Positions 5,701 through 22,023 of a DNA stretch of 30,828 nt are shown one piece after another; position 1 is the first letter of the stretch; each line of letters opens with the position of its first letter. The translations under genes and the position numbers were made by a program. The stretch covers positions 1-30,828 of the forward strand of contig DALYJE010000026.1 in assembly GCA_031970015.1 (NCBI GenBank). The letters run 5' to 3'. A model generated the notes under the pieces. The model did not search any database. It saw nothing but the letters and a program-made list of their open reading frames with translations, and was not told the DNA's origin. This stretch comes from Coleofasciculaceae cyanobacterium CTOTU46609 (GTDB lineage Bacteria > Cyanobacteriota > Cyanobacteriia > Cyanobacteriales > Coleofasciculaceae).

Positions 5701-7956
5701 ATGCGTATTCTATTTTTACATCCTAATTTTCCTGCCCAATTCCGTCATCTGGCTGCGGCGCTCGCCAACGATAAACGTCACCAAGTAGTATTCGGCACTA
5801 CCCGTCGCGAAGGTCATCTACCCGGTGTCACCAAGATGATTTATAGCCCAAAACGAGAAGCTCGACCGGAAACTCACCACTATGTCCGTCCCCTAGAAAA
5901 CGCCGTAATTCAAGGTCAGGCTGTCTATCGCATGGCAGAGCAACTGAAGGCACGCGGATTTGTTCCCGATGTCGTCTATGGACATTCGGGTTGGGGGCCA
6001 ACTTTATTAATGAAAGATATATTTCCAAAAGCTAAATTACTGTGCTATTTTGAATGGTTTTATCATGCTCATGGCTCTGATGCTGACTTTGACCCAACTG
6101 AACAGCTAAGTGCTGACGATGAAGCCCGGATTCGGCTGAAAAATGCGCCGATTTTGATGGATTTATATAGTTGCGATCGCGGCCTTTCTCCCACCCACTG
6201 GCAGCGCCAGCAATTTCCAGTAGAAAATCAAAGTAAAATTACGGTACTTCATGATGGCATTGATACCAACTTCTTTAGCCCCAAGCCAGGAGCTAAGTTG
6301 GTTCTGCGCCAAATCAATCTAGACCTATCTCATGTGGCAGAACTCGTTACCTATGTAGGTCGAGGCATGGAACCTTACCGGGGTTTTCCGCAATTTATTG
6401 AAGCAATCTACTTACTTCAACAGCGCCGACCCCAATGTCATGTTGTCATTGTTGGGGAAGATCGAGTTGCTTATGGGAAGTCTCTGCCAGATGGCAAAAC
6501 CTATAAGCAGTTGATGTTAGAAAAATTCCCCTTAGACTTGTCTAGAGTTCACTTTACAGGACATCTCCCTTACGAAGAATATCTACAAGTTCTGCAAGCT
6601 TCTTCTGTCCATATTTATTTGACTCGCCCCTTTGTTTTATCCTGGTCAATGTTGGAAGCTTTATCTACAGGTTGTTTGATTGTGGGTTCCAACACAGCCC
6701 CAGTAACTGAGGTCATCCAAGATGGGGTAAACGGTCTCATCGCAGAGTTCTTTTCACCAGCAGAAATTGCCGATCGAATTGAGGAAGCGTTGAATCATCC
6801 CGATCGCATGAATCAAATCCGCACGCAAGCAAGGCAAATTATTCAGGAACGTTACGATCTGTCGCTGTTACTGCCCCAGCACTTACAGTGGATTCAGCAG
6901 GATATCGGCGATAGTCAGATTCTGCTATGGCAGGGAACTCAGTCAAAGTCAGCCACTATCATCCCAGCCAACGAACCGCATGGGAAAGATCAAGAGTCGG
7001 AACGCTCATCCACGCCAGAGCTAGTTCCGATCGCTCAGGGGAACGAGTCAAATGGCATTCCTAAAGCCAACAAGGCTTCAGTTAAACCAAAGCAAGTTGC
7101 GATCGCTCAGGGTTTTGGCTCAAAAGGAAAACCTAAAAGCACGAAGCATTCACCTACACCAAACCTAGCCGCTACTACCAATAGTTTCAGCTCGAAGGGA
7201 AAATCCAAAGATCAGGAACAGCCATCTGCAACAGATTCAGGTATCTTACAAATTTGCGATCGCACCGTGACGGGGACTGAACTGGTTGTTCTGCTGAATC
7301 AATACCAACTGCTGCCAAAGCTTCAGCAAGAGATCGTAATTGAGGATGCGATCGCGCCCTTTAGCTGCACCCTGGAAGAGAAAGTCCAGTGCTGCCAGGA
7401 CTTCTACGATCGGCATCAGTTGACATCCGACACGGTACGTCAAACCTGGTTGCAGCAGCAGAGCATGACAGAAGCCCAATTAATCAACCTGGCAACCCGG
7501 CAACTGAGAATTGAAAAGTTTAAAGAAGCCACCTGGGGTAGCGAATTGGAAACCTACTTTCTCAAGCGCAAGTGCCAACTCGACCAATTCGTCTACTCCC
7601 TAATTCGTCTTCGGGATGCTGAAACTGCCCAGGAAATTTACTGCCGCTTGCAAGAAGGGGAACAGCCTTTTGCTGAATTGGCACAGCAATATTCCCAGGG
7701 TGTAGAAGCTAAGACGGGTGGCTTAATTGGTCCAGTGGGATTGAGTAACGCTCATCCTCAACTCGCCCAACTCATCAGAACCAGCCAACCAGGGCAGCTA
7801 TTGCCTCCTATTGCCATCGCAGATTTGTGGGTGATTGTGCGGTTAGAAAAGTTTTTGCCTGCTCAACTAGATGAACTAATGCGGCAGCAGTTACTCAACG
7901 AACTATTCGCTAACTGGCTCAAGGAACAACTTCAAAAACCTGCAATATCATTATAA
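5701..7956 (+). CDS. GT4-family (group 1) glycosyltransferase fused through a disordered S/K/P linker to a SurA-N-like plus parvulin-like (PpiC) domain
   Basis: The N-terminal half has the GT-B retaining-GT pattern, including an EX7E-like segment SWSMLEALSTGCLIVGS...TEV. The C-terminus, FAELAQQYSQ...TGGLIGPV...LWVIVRLEK, matches parvulin topology but lacks the catalytic His pair. Confidence 0.75.
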   Translation: MRILFLHPNFPAQFRHLAAALANDKRHQVVFGTTRREGHLPGVTKMIYSPKREARPETHHYVRPLENAVIQGQAVYRMAEQLKARGFVPDVVYGHSGWGPTLLMKDIFPKAKLLCYFEWFYHAHGSDADFDPTEQLSADDEARIRLKNAPILMDLYSCDRGLSPTHWQRQQFPVENQSKITVLHDGIDTNFFSPKPGAKLVLRQINLDLSHVAELVTYVGRGMEPYRGFPQFIEAIYLLQQRRPQCHVVIVGEDRVAYGKSLPDGKTYKQLMLEKFPLDLSRVHFTGHLPYEEYLQVLQASSVHIYLTRPFVLSWSMLEALSTGCLIVGSNTAPVTEVIQDGVNGLIAEFFSPAEIADRIEEALNHPDRMNQIRTQARQIIQERYDLSLLLPQHLQWIQQDIGDSQILLWQGTQSKSATIIPANEPHGKDQESERSSTPELVPIAQGNESNGIPKANKASVKPKQVAIAQGFGSKGKPKSTKHSPTPNLAATTNSFSSKGKSKDQEQPSATDSGILQICDRTVTGTELVVLLNQYQLLPKLQQEIVIEDAIAPFSCTLEEKVQCCQDFYDRHQLTSDTVRQTWLQQQSMTEAQLINLATRQLRIEKFKEATWGSELETYFLKRKCQLDQFVYSLIRLRDAETAQEIYCRLQEGEQPFAELAQQYSQGVEAKTGGLIGPVGLSNAHPQLAQLIRTSQPGQLLPPIAIADLWVIVRLEKFLPAQLDELMRQQLLNELFANWLKEQLQKPAISL

Positions 7957-19001: not shown

Positions 19002-19874
19002 CTACAAATACTTCCTTAACAACAGCCGTAACTTTTCTTTCGTCGCCTCTGAGACCTGAGCCAGTGGTGTCAAAATGGCGTATTTTAAGGCCGAGTGCGC
19101 CTCCGAAACAGGGGGATTTTCACTCAAGCGCCGCACGGTTTCTTGAATTACTTTCTGAGCATTGGTAGCATTACGTTGCAGATTAGCAATTACCATTTCT
19201 ACCGTCACGCTGTCGTGGTCGGGATGCCAGCAGTCGTAATCTGTTACCAGTGCTAAGGTTGCATAGGCTATCTCCGCTTCCCGCGCCAGCTTTGCCTCTG
19301 GCAAATTGGTCATCCCAATCACTGTTGCGCCCCAGCTGCGGTAGAGATTAGACTCAGCTTTTGTGGAAAATGCTGGCCCTTCCATACAGACATAAGTGCC
19401 GCTGCGATGCAGGGTTACATCTGGTAATTCCAGACTGGCAACTGCATCTGCTAAAACCCCTGCCAGTTGATGGCACACCGGATCGGCAAAGGCAATATGA
19501 GCGACAATTCCTTCACCAAAGAAGGTAGAAACCCGATTTTTGGTACGGTCAATAAACTGATCCGGTACTACCATATCTAGAGGTTTAGCCTCTTCCTTCA
19601 AGGAACCCACGGCTGAGGCCGAAATCAGATACTCCACACCTAACTGCTTCATGGCATGGATATTGGCTCGAAATGGTAACTCTGAGGGTAACAGAGTGTG
19701 GTTGCGACCGTGACGGGCGAGAAACGCCACGGGCGTTCCTGCCAGCGTTCCCACAATCAAGGCATCTGACGGCGTACCAAAGGGGGTATCAACCCGCACC
19801 TCTTCCAAATCCTTGAGGTCTGCCATTTTGTACAGTCCGCTACCGCCAATAATGCCAATTTTTGCCTGAGCCAT
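19002..19874 (-). CDS. mtnP: S-methyl-5'-thioadenosine phosphorylase
   Basis: [16 protein letters not shown]-terminus and the PNP/MTAP family pattern throughout. Confidence 0.85.
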
Positions 19875-19963
19875 CGTTGTTGCCTTCTGCTTTGCTGCAA
19901 TGCCAAGTTATTTTGGCATACTCCGCGTCTGAAAAGTTATTGTTTTTAGGACTTAGGCAAACG

Positions 19964-20010
19964 CCCCCCTAACCCCCCAAATCTGGGGGGAACAAGAAAT
20001 TTCTCCCCCC
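19964..20010. repeat. cluster of C6/G6 homopolymer tracts containing the hairpin CCCCCC-AAATCT-GGGGGG
   Basis: Tracts of C6, C6, G6 and C6 within 47 bp, about 90 bp upstream of the mtnP start on the other strand. Confidence 0.7.
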
Positions 20011-20308
20011 AGCTCCTCATGCGATCGCCGGATTGCCCACTCTTGAGGAGTTAGAAGTCATGGACGATAAGTCGATCGATTATCAAGACTCTGACGCGAG
20101 CCAAAGGTATCGGACGGTGGACTGTACAGATGCTGCTGATTTTCCGTCTCAAGCGGTGGGATATCCTGCCTGTGGATGGGAAGATGCGATCTCGCTATTG
20201 CCTCATGTCTGTCTCACGCTAGGAGGCATACAATAAGGTCAAGCATGCTACTAATAGGATAATAATATCTTTATTTTTCTGTTTAGAAACACCACAAAAG
20301 GAGTAAAA

Positions 20309-21871
20309 ATGCCAAAGGAAAGTCCAAACGTTAGCTTAGATGCCCTGATACCTAGAGAAGCTTTTGAAGTTCTAGGACAACAAAATCAAAACATAGGAAG
20401 AAATGTTCCTATGATATCAATTCGAGATTTAGAACAAAATTCTTTCTTCTATCCATCTTTAAGGAAGCCAGATTTCCAGCGTGAAACTAATGAGTGGGAT
20501 GCTGAGAAAATATGTGAGTTTATAGAAAGCTTTTTGGATGGAGATTTAATCCCAGCAGTTATTCTTTGGAGAAGTTCTGGTAGTGACTACTTTGTCATTG
20601 ATGGCTCACATAGACTAAGTTCTTTAATTGCTTGGATAAATGATGATTATGGTGATGGTAAAATTTCCAAAGAATTTTATGATGGAGACATCGCAGAAGA
20701 GCAGAAGAGTGCTGCTCAGATGGTAAGAAAATTGATTAATGAAAGGATAGGTTCTTACAAGCATTATCAATCTTTAACACAGCATCGAGGAGAAGTAGAC
20801 CCAAAAATTCTTGATAGAGCAAGAAACTTAGGCGCTTTAGGTATACAGCTTCAGTGGGTTGAAGGTGATGTACGCAAAGCAGAAGATTCTTTCTTCAAAA
20901 TCAACCAAAAAGCAGCGCCAATAGGTGAAACTGAGATACGTTTGTTACAAGCTCGAAATACACCTAATGGTGTTGCTACTCGTGCCATCATGAGAAGTGG
21001 TAACGGACATAAGTATTGGTCAGACTTTTCTCATGAGAAGCAAGAAAATATTGAGAAATTAGCTCAAGAAATACATCAACTCATTTTTGAACCTAAGCTG
21101 AAAAATCCTATTAAGACTTTAGACGTACCAATAGTAGGAAATTTGTCATCTTCAGAAAAACTTGAATTAATATTAGAGTTTGTCAATATAGTTAATAATA
21201 TAGAAGAAGATAATCAATTGGGAAACGATTCAACGGGAGATAAGACAGTACAACTGTTAAGAAATTGCAAAAAAGTAGCTCAAAGGATAAATAGCAAAGA
21301 CCCTTCATCTCTTGGTCTTCATCCAATAATATATTTCTATACGAGTGCTGGAAAGCCTAAAATTGGCTCATTTTATGGTGTTGTTGCCTTGATGTTAGAT
21401 TTAGAAAAAACTAAATCTTTTTCTAAGTTTATACAAATTAGAAAAGATTTTGAGTGGGTGATTTGGCAAGATGATATGGTTCCACAGATTGTCAGTAAGA
21501 GCAGTGCAGTAAAGGCGAGAGGAAAGGTTAAAGATTTTTATCGACAAATCATTGACAAATTATCTGAAGGAGTAGACAAGAAAAATGTCATGAAGGAGAT
21601 AGTTGCTGAAAAAACATTTGGTTCTTTAAAAAGAAAAACAAAAGGGAATACCAGTGAAACCGCAAGTAAAGAATTTTCACGAGAGACAAAATCAGCAGCA
21701 TTTATCAGAGATACTTTACCTGGTTCTCCACGATGTAGAATTTGTGAGGGATATCTCCCCAGTAGCTTTTGCTCTATAGACCATAAAATAAGAAAAGCAG
21801 ATGGTGGCTTAGGTACTTTAGAGAATGCCCAGTTGACTCACCCATACTGTAATACAACATTCAAAAATTGA
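20309..21871 (+). CDS. DUF262 (ParB/GmrS-like) N-terminal domain plus C-terminal HNH nuclease protein. GmrSD/SspE-like candidate defence nuclease.
   Basis: N-terminal FQRETNEW...IPAVILW...FVIDGSHRLSSL follows the DUF262 FQR/DGQQR pattern. C-terminal CRICEGY...IDHKIRKADGG...ENAQLTHPYCN follows the HNH pattern. AAAGGAG lies 7 nt before the ATG. The gene is AT-rich and I find no HIP1 site inside it. Confidence 0.75.
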   Translation: MPKESPNVSLDALIPREAFEVLGQQNQNIGRNVPMISIRDLEQNSFFYPSLRKPDFQRETNEWDAEKICEFIESFLDGDLIPAVILWRSSGSDYFVIDGSHRLSSLIAWINDDYGDGKISKEFYDGDIAEEQKSAAQMVRKLINERIGSYKHYQSLTQHRGEVDPKILDRARNLGALGIQLQWVEGDVRKAEDSFFKINQKAAPIGETEIRLLQARNTPNGVATRAIMRSGNGHKYWSDFSHEKQENIEKLAQEIHQLIFEPKLKNPIKTLDVPIVGNLSSSEKLELILEFVNIVNNIEEDNQLGNDSTGDKTVQLLRNCKKVAQRINSKDPSSLGLHPIIYFYTSAGKPKIGSFYGVVALMLDLEKTKSFSKFIQIRKDFEWVIWQDDMVPQIVSKSSAVKARGKVKDFYRQIIDKLSEGVDKKNVMKEIVAEKTFGSLKRKTKGNTSETASKEFSRETKSAAFIRDTLPGSPRCRICEGYLPSSFCSIDHKIRKADGGLGTLENAQLTHPYCNTTFKN

Positions 21872-21964
21872 ATATTCCTAGACTAGCCATAAAATTAACC
21901 CTACAATTAACTATGGCAATCGCTCGTGCGATCGCACCTCTATAGCAATTTTAAAATCAGCTTT

Positions 21965-21985
21965 CTGGTTGAAAAGCTCAACCAG
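21965..21985. other. stem-loop CTGGTTGA-AAAGC-TCAACCAG
   Basis: Perfect 8-bp inverted repeat, in tandem with the terminator hairpin that follows. Confidence 0.4.
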
Positions 21986-21994
21986 ATTCTAAAC

Positions 21995-22023
21995 AAAAAG
22001 CCTCCCATTCAGGAGGCTTTATT
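21995..22023. terminator. bidirectional intrinsic terminator AAAGCCTCC-CATTCA-GGAGGCTTT between convergent genes
   Basis: 9-bp GC-containing stem. ATTCTC follows on the plus strand and TTTTTGTTT follows on the minus strand. It sits between the plus-strand stop at 21871 and the minus-strand stop at 22050. Confidence 0.7.

Follow-up and report, generated by a model that had tools for sequence, protein, structure and literature searches.

The closest described systems to the locus analysed here are the GmrSD-family type IV restriction enzymes and a group of defence nucleases with which they have the DUF262 domain in common. In GmrSD, BrxU, SspE and GrwAB, DUF262 acts as a nucleoside triphosphatase (NTPase) and sensor controlling a His-Me nuclease (PMC10952713, PMC12137116, PMC12065111). 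In the characterised relatives modified DNA is sensed by DUF262 and the C-terminal His-Me nuclease is then licensed (PMC10952713, PMC12137116), and DNA binding has been proposed for the helical domain that follows DUF262 (PMC12065111). A defining activity of the GmrSD family is the NTP-stimulated cleavage of modified DNA, for example DNA containing glc-hmC. In enterobacterial GmrSD-like proteins the nuclease is "either HNH or DUF1524", and some of these proteins have been tested, with GmrSD clusters CLS_001–020 assayed in E. coli (PMC12373910). The subject of this work is a DUF262-HNH gene located in a 30,828-nucleotide stretch of cyanobacterial DNA (contig DALYJE010000026.1), the whole of which is referred to as the window. 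The gene, an open reading frame (ORF) of 520 aa at positions 20309–21871 of the forward strand, is contained in a 1734-bp single-gene cassette (20180–21913, forward strand) composed of a 5' module, an AT-rich leader, a ribosome-binding site, the ORF and a 42-nt tail. The cassette appears to be a horizontally moved, self-contained gene for a stand-alone GmrSD-like nuclease whose likeliest role, favoured with moderate confidence by analogy with these enzymes, would be innate defence against phages and other foreign DNA.

Domain architecture and likeness to GmrSD

The window protein is predicted, from its sequence and from the modelled fold, to be a nuclease with an N-terminal DUF262 domain, a helical middle and a C-terminal HNH domain. 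The DUF262/GmrSD_N domain, of ParB/Srx-like type, spans residues 51–210 (20459–20938, forward strand; PF03235, E = 1.3e-13, 51.9 bits against a cut-off of 33.2) and displays the motifs FQR (F56-Q57-R58), DGSHR (D98 to R102) and FxxxN (F195 to N199). It is followed by an all-helical middle (residues 211–475; 20939–21733, forward strand), of which the helical domain proper accounts for ~240 aa, with the conserved segment SLGLHPxxYxY at residues 334–344, the conserved pair R378/E382 and a low-confidence linker at about residues 435–457. No Pfam family covers residues 211–475, as the initial annotation, which recognised no family in the middle of the protein, had anticipated. The C-terminus folds into a zinc-ribbon HNH of the ββα-Me type (residues 476–517; 21734–21859, forward strand; PF01844, 23.0 bits against a cut-off of 21.4), organised as C476-x2-C479, D491-H492, N506 and H511-x2-C514, and thus contains, besides the catalytic His, structural Asn and metal-ligand His/Asn of this fold, its CxxC and HxxC zinc ligand pairs. 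Conservation was counted over 89 family members, down to ~33% identity. Residues K53, F56, Q57, R58, W63, D98, G99, H101, R102, N199 and R225 are invariant, as are R378, E382, C476, C479, H492, G500, H511, C514 and N515, while D491 and N506 are at least 90% conserved.

The AlphaFold model used here was built from the 89 sequences and is confident; it replaced an earlier model based on 36 close homologues, for which the mean predicted local distance difference test (pLDDT) score was 68. The model displays a ParB/Srx fold in its DUF262 part and a ββα element at residues 489–518, and its top three matches among solved structures are BrxU, SspE and DndI. A local Foldseek match is made with the Gme HNH (4h9d, probability 0.92–0.94), while nothing significant was returned by Foldseek for the whole chain. 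Profile matches of the HNH domain include the HNH of a group II intron maturase and that of Cas9. A sequence search of the PDB matched the HNH motif only, with no chain found outside the HNH. The DUF262 N-terminus and C-terminal HNH read by the initial annotation are therefore corroborated by the Pfam matches, the invariant motifs and the fold matches of the model.

The window protein resembles the GmrSD-family type IV enzymes (Eco94GmrSD, EcoCT GmrSD, BrxU) in being one polypeptide with no methyltransferase partner, in which an N-terminal DUF262 carrying QR, DG..R and FxxxN is followed by a helical linker or middle and by a C-terminal nuclease of the His-Me-finger superfamily. The two also have defence islands and mobile elements in common as locations. 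In contrast, the nuclease of GmrSD, SspE and BrxU is DUF1524 while that of the window protein is a zinc-ribbon PF01844 HNH, so that the architecture is analogous rather than identical; no match to GmrSD_C (DUF1524/PF07510, with its DHIYP-type motif) was found in the window protein at E <= 1. The GmrSD/SspE/BrxU-like architecture proposed initially thus agrees with the fold matches and does not extend to the nuclease. A second difference concerns the (I/V)DGQQR motif of GmrSD, the one mutated in characterised GmrSD relatives, which corresponds here to the invariant D98-G99-x-H101-R102 (VIDGSHRL), where Asp-Gly and Arg are kept and QQ is replaced by SH. Because DUF1524 is absent and DGQQR is only partly kept, the window protein is placed outside GmrSD proper and is treated as a separate, GmrSD-like DUF262-HNH variant, not as a new kind of system.

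The remaining DUF262 systems differ in other respects. SspE and DndI are phosphorothioate-sensing DUF262 nucleases whose nuclease domain is different from that of the window protein, and no linked sspABCD or dndBCDE genes were found in the window or beside the relatives examined. Similarly, none of the bacteriophage exclusion (BREX) genes that accompany BrxU was found in the window or in the examined loci. Menshen NsnA, PD-T4-2, Dazbog and GrwAB/TgvAB have the DUF262 core in common with the window protein, but each of them comprises several genes, including ATPases or other partners. The "DUF262 HNH" genes embedded in Acinetobacter BREX loci (PMC10117892), which are uncharacterised, are annotated with the same two domains and likewise lie among defence genes; as their products are only ~25% identical to the window protein, they are assigned to a different subfamily.

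Composition, limits and transfer of the cassette

The limits of the cassette (20180–21913) were set by homology to copies at other loci, using blastn and MAFFT, and lie close to the 20240–21900 islet first delineated by composition, which they supersede. The cassette has a GC content of 0.352 compared with a mean of 0.469 (standard deviation 0.020, minimum 0.405) in non-overlapping windows of the same size, corresponding to z = −5.9. In a 500-nt profile the GC content is ~0.50 at 19750–20250, falls to 0.31–0.38 over 20250–22000 and then rises to ~0.51, with the remainder of the window at ~0.47. The ORF itself has a GC content of 0.353 and a third-codon-position GC content (GC3) of 0.246, against a GC3 of 0.38–0.51 in the other 14 genes compared, and its codon-usage distance is the largest among these 15 window genes. 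Translation would start from a canonical Shine-Dalgarno sequence, AAGGAG (20298–20303, forward strand), separated from the ATG by a 5-nt spacer and kept in two of the copies described below (loci L004 and L006); none of the other 14 genes carries a canonical AAGGAG. The compositional shift, the A/T-ending codons and the strong ribosome-binding site unlike those of the neighbours, all pointed out in the initial annotation, are thus borne out by these measurements. Two further candidates were rejected. A structured RNA or riboswitch in the leader is not supported, Rfam giving sub-threshold terminator-like matches only and the leader folding with z = −1.0. A 58-aa ORF at 20060–20236 (forward strand), called in metagenome annotations (L087), straddles the junction between host and cassette at 20180 and is probably spurious.

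In the window the cassette is inserted between mtnP and the gene for a large 1046-aa repeat protein. DNA ~91% identical to it is found, with sharp ends, at two other and unrelated chromosomal sites whose flanks display no detectable similarity to the window. The first, located between a TPR gene and the gene for glutamate synthase, is occupied in Kamptonema animale CS-326 (L004/L005) and in Phormidium nigroviride (L006), and the second, known from metagenome contigs L113–L118, is flanked by a Uma2 gene and by a small HNH gene that is followed by XisI. The window protein is 87% identical to the K. animale copy and 84% identical to the P. nigroviride copy. The window arrangement itself recurs, with proteins 100% identical, in contigs of at least four metagenome samples, and all same-species contigs that reach the insertion site carry the cassette. 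The host of these copies can be placed through its PcrA, which matches that of "Cyanobacteria bacterium UBA9273" at 100% identity and those of Coleofasciculus, Allocoleopsis and other Coleofasciculaceae at 80–85%, no other lineage listed exceeding ~85%. Among its best 120 matches, which reach down to 74%, the sole Microcoleaceae-named entry is the metagenome-assembled genome "Kamptonema sp. SIO1D9" at 75%. The host is thus an uncultured filamentous cyanobacterium whose nearest named relatives are Coleofasciculales, the order of Coleofasciculus, while K. animale belongs to the Oscillatoriales (Microcoleaceae).

Atypical composition, discordant similarity and differing genomic locations, the marks of a horizontally acquired islet, are all found at this locus. 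Because a foreign composition is combined with three insertion sites and with a similarity far above housekeeping divergence, horizontal transfer of the cassette is strongly supported and is the only reasonable reading of these sequences. On this comparison the cassette has evidently moved recently between distantly related filamentous cyanobacteria, one of them from a different order than the host, in line with the acquisition first suggested from composition. The low GC content is a property of the family as well, since the gene lies below its flanks in 21 of 21 loci from very different hosts, by a difference of −0.003 to −0.21. No empty site was found in a MtnP scan of GTDB species genomes or in the pcrA neighbourhoods of the two closest sister lineages; as the mtnP and pcrA neighbourhoods are non-syntenic in the closest available species, no empty-site comparison is available. 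The comparison of sister lineages proposed with the initial annotation therefore yields presence in every same-species contig that extends to the site and no vacant allele, and the conserved synteny with host-like codon usage that would have spoken for a resident gene is not observed.

The lack of syntenic conservation also bears on the possibility that the gene encodes a housekeeping ParB-like protein serving chromosome or DNA-repair functions. Such a role would fit the ParB/Srx fold and the presence of pcrA nearby in the window. It is nevertheless hardly credible given the patchy distribution of the gene, its foreign composition, its occurrence in phages and plasmids and a pcrA neighbourhood that differs in sister species.

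Sequence divergence among the close cassette copies (dS 0.14–0.22, dN/dS 0.29–0.43) indicates purifying selection, somewhat relaxed or diversifying. That the cassette might be no more than the decaying or functionless remains of an earlier transfer is very improbable. The dN/dS values are well under 1, although they exceed those usual for housekeeping genes. The window copy is without the last ~57 nt of a tail common to the other three copies, and a Pantoea homologue is annotated as two coding sequences, as might be expected of decay. However, the 520-aa ORF is intact with every catalytic and nucleotide-binding motif present, the ribosome-binding site and the 5' module are conserved, and the same allele is found in all of the metagenome samples mentioned above.

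The sharp boundaries of the cassette, its intergenic positions and the near-identity of copies in unrelated lineages could also arise if the gene encoded a selfish, free-standing HNH endonuclease of the homing type, which would cut cassette-less alleles and be copied in by repair, the host gaining no defence. The HNH is a classic homing-endonuclease fold, no recombinase or transposase was found within the cassette, and relatives of the protein are present in phages. Against a homing enzyme, copies that are ~91% identical occupy three insertion sites with no detectable flank similarity, where a single cognate target would be expected. In addition, purifying selection maintains, in different phyla, ~470 aa of DUF262 and helical domain for which a homing enzyme has no need. 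The closest folds belong to defence nucleases and not to homing enzymes, and relatives are found in variable defence slots beside restriction-modification systems. Homing is accordingly considered an unlikely explanation, and a transferred GmrSD-like defence nuclease is retained as the favoured reading.

Distribution of the family and proposed function

The family comprises more than 3400 homologues, with 343 clusters at E <= 1e-30 in a library clustered at 50% identity. Relatives in Acidobacteriota, Priestia and Planctomycetes align over 98–99% of the query with 53–54% identity. No conserved partner gene was found across 23 loci, and for this reason the DUF262-HNH gene is regarded as a stand-alone system; it is solitary in the window and in the Kamptonema, Enterobacter and Pantoea contexts. 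Several relatives are surrounded by defence genes. In Priestia aryabhattai a KAP NTPase, an AAA_15/21 ATPase and HsdM are encoded nearby. The Acidobacteriota relatives have a variable upstream slot, with integrase fragments and another restriction-modification system downstream. This slot is occupied by split GmrS and GmrD genes in one genome (L120, 7284–9322) and by an N6_N4 methyltransferase and an MvaI/BcnI endonuclease in other contigs (L121, 7795–9362; L122, 7194–8761), the flanks being otherwise alike, and it looks like a variable defence hotspot.

Other family members are phage-borne, and in these copies the full-length protein is labelled "HNH endonuclease", "putative repressor C protein" or of unknown function. 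In the Burkholderia P2-like phage KL3, gp44 (40% identity, full-length) has an EcoRII restriction-modification/Vsr module on one side and the portal gene on the other. In the Pseudomonas filamentous prophage Pf8, gp01 (L131, 4992–6530; NC_073756.1, 1–1539; 46% identity, full-length) adjoins the excisionase, and its label "putative repressor C protein" is probably wrong because it is a full-length DUF262-HNH family member. PHROG 29172 ("unknown function") matches the window protein over its full length with E = 5e-135. Members of the family were found on 22 IMG/VR viral contigs, often near contig ends, and full-length copies are carried by plasmids of Enterobacter, Pantoea, Burkholderia and Microvirga, conjugative or mobilizable plasmids included. 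The copy on a Pantoea agglomerans megaplasmid (L133, 8001–9584), solitary among housekeeping genes, is annotated as two coding sequences of 83 aa and 440 aa, which suggests that it is frameshifted or decaying.

This distribution raises the possibility that the gene serves the mobile elements themselves, through superinfection exclusion, inter-element conflict or as an addiction or abortive-infection toxin, and that the chromosomal copy is a stranded remnant. The 22 viral contigs, the accessory region of the P2-like phage, the Pf8 prophage and the plasmids would all be accounted for, as would a gene GC content below that of every host examined. However, neither the window nor the two other cyanobacterial sites have phage, plasmid or integrase genes next to the cassette, and no conserved antitoxin-like partner is present. 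An accessory role of this kind, which overlaps with defence in practice and differs mainly in who benefits, is regarded as rather improbable.

For a defence nuclease of the GmrSD-like kind, the following mechanism may be envisaged by analogy with the characterised enzymes. The N-terminal DUF262 domain, of ParB/Srx type, would most likely be a nucleotide-binding and -hydrolysing switch and sensor, the helical middle domain would most likely bind DNA, and the C-terminal zinc-ribbon HNH would be the effector nuclease. Some feature of foreign DNA, possibly a modified base or backbone, would be recognised by the DUF262 and helical module together. Nicking or cutting by the HNH domain would then be licensed through the nucleotide-dependent switch, as in type IV restriction. 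Neither a cognate methyltransferase nor a partner gene would be needed. NTPase activity, DNA cleavage, the nature of the recognised signal and the anti-phage phenotype of the window protein are all predicted by this same analogy.

Several points weigh against a defence function. The mechanism is carried over from GmrSD by analogy, as the nuclease is not DUF1524 and DGQQR reads DGSHR. Judged from its gene neighbours, the window is not a defence island, and the neighbourhood evidence gathered from relatives comes from a few dozen loci considered without a background statistic. A full-text literature search found no experimental test specific to the DUF262-HNH family, and the term "DUF262-HNH" was absent. 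Reference collections offer little more: PADLOC 2023, one of the checks proposed initially, matched the DUF262 core weakly and partially, through NsnA (1e-8, residues 53–114) and PD-T4-2_A (2e-5), and contains no full-length model, NCBIfam has no model at all, and the full-length PHROG is of unknown function. The two PADLOC matches together cover residues 53–121 only and are joined by no conserved partner, unlike a Menshen or PD-T4-2 locus, where a full-length match would be accompanied by partner genes.

Host flanks and HIP1 octamers

The genes surrounding the cassette in the window encode RTX and pentapeptide proteins, a glycosyltransferase, a vault-protein homologue, PcrA, a kinase, a GDSL lipase, MtnP and sensor kinases. 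The GDSL-lipase gene (18193–18942, forward strand), two genes from the cassette, is a second and milder composition outlier (GC 0.376, GC3 0.380), and its adjacency to mtnP is found in the same species only. The beginning of the window (about positions 1–750), upstream of the RTX/pentapeptide-repeat gene, is likewise AT-rich (GC 0.30–0.34). An 878-aa ORF on the reverse strand (10261–12897) has strong matches, with E as low as 2e-67, to the Vault-repeat, Vault_2/3/4 and MVP_shoulder domains of the eukaryotic Major Vault Protein and is a bacterial homologue of that protein in a cyanobacterium.

The hairpin-rich spacer and the bidirectional terminator that the initial annotation placed at the two ends of the gene are less well supported. 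The spacer DNA folds with z = −1.36, 9 of 100 shuffled sequences folding equally well, and the two discrete hairpins present near the cassette are both in host-side DNA. The terminator scan made its call on the minus strand only, identifying the intrinsic-terminator hairpin of the convergent 1046-aa gene (21997–22020, reverse strand), which lies 84 nt beyond the cassette and outside the homology block. Its plus-strand T-tract is poor, although the hairpin might stop transcription of the cassette too. Upstream of mtnP, a hairpin with the sequence CCCCCCAAATCTGGGGGG is located at 19973–19990, and three independent metagenome contigs (L001–L003) break off only a few bases away, so that the hairpin may represent a repeat or a structure that interrupts assembly.

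The initial annotation had also described the islet as free of HIP1. The HIP1 octamer (GCGATCGC) occurs at 37 sites in the window, against 0.4 expected, or ~1.2 per kb; to our knowledge this abundant repeat has long been unexplained. The octamer GCGATCGC is indeed absent between 20028 and 21928, a gap of 1907 nt that ranks fourth largest of 36, yet the gap alone is not beyond chance since the probability of finding no site is ~0.10–0.125. HIP1 is also absent inside the gene in the cassette copies at three other cyanobacterial loci, which are not independent evidence because the copies are homologous. Within the Ser/Thr kinase gene, two HIP1 sites 102 nt apart (17603–17610 and 17705–17712) lie in near-identical 24-nt contexts (caaaatcgGCGATCGCta[t/c]ggcta), which indicates an internal repeat in that gene. 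On the host side of the cassette, the nearest intact upstream HIP1 is located at 20021–20028. The next HIP1 downstream (21928–21935) is contained in a 12-nt palindrome, GTGCGATCGCAC (21926–21937), which is situated 13 nt beyond the cassette's right end, also on the host side. The same palindrome is found just downstream of a DUF433 and DUF5615 cargo in contig L127 (at 1121).

The left end of the cassette carries a 49-nt 5' module (20186–20234, forward strand), which starts with a one-mismatch HIP1 (GCGATCTC, 20186–20193) and ends with a −10-like TACAAT (20229–20234). Its sequence, GCGATC[G/T]CGCTATTGCCTCATGTCTGTCTCACGCTAGGAGGCATACAAT, was recovered at L113 7068–7116 and 7880–7930, L115 ~891–943, L116 ~138–190 and L127 219–268. 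The module precedes three unrelated cargoes: the DUF262-HNH gene in the window and in L004, L006 and L113, a Uma2 gene in L113, L115 and L116, and a toxin-antitoxin-like DUF433 and DUF5615 pair in L127. No Rfam match and no significant fold were obtained for it, and it may be a portable promoter, a junction element or a recombination adaptor. A motif scan of metagenome contigs returned one genuine cyanobacterial copy, that of L127, and a scan of viral contigs returned nothing; matches in L126, L128 and L129 were rejected as chance matches to an apparently non-bacterial repeat.

HIP1 octamers recur at the ends of the homology as well. The three non-window copies run ~57 nt further to the right and cease to be homologous to one another exactly at GCGATCGC or GCGATAGC. 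Breakpoints at HIP1 or one-mismatch HIP1 octamers are found in the window (20186–20193 and 21928–21935), in L113 (~9668–9675) and in L004 (~7655–7662), and a 28-nt insertion between two HIP1 halves distinguishes one locus from another (L113 7825–7885 compared with L127 205–232). One speculative reading, to which a low probability is attached, is that the cassette belongs to a group of small defence-gene cassettes, each with its own promoter, that filamentous cyanobacteria would exchange through recombination at HIP1 octamers. The 49-nt module (GCGATCGC...TACAAT) would then serve as their common 5' adaptor, with a HIP1 or one-mismatch HIP1 octamer at both junctions. Because five contexts only are available and HIP1 occurs at ~1.2 sites per kb, so that coincidence is possible, the idea is presented as a lead and not as a finding.

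If the window protein defends against phages, a widespread family of at least 343 clusters at 50% identity, ranging over cyanobacteria, Acidobacteriota, Bacillota, Pseudomonadota, Planctomycetes, temperate phages and plasmids, would be added to the GmrSD-like restriction enzymes. It would also follow that DUF1524 is not the sole nuclease module that the DUF262 sensor and switch can drive, a zinc-ribbon HNH taking its place here, which bears on how such enzymes are constructed. The family in addition marks an annotation gap, in that neither a full-length PADLOC 2023 model nor any NCBIfam model covers it. For cyanobacteria, the cassette provides a clean and dated case of the transfer of a 1.7-kb single gene between orders. 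Its junctions at HIP1 octamers offer a concrete, testable lead on the function of HIP1, which, should exchange at these octamers prove true, would gain a role as a junction for the shuffling of accessory genes.

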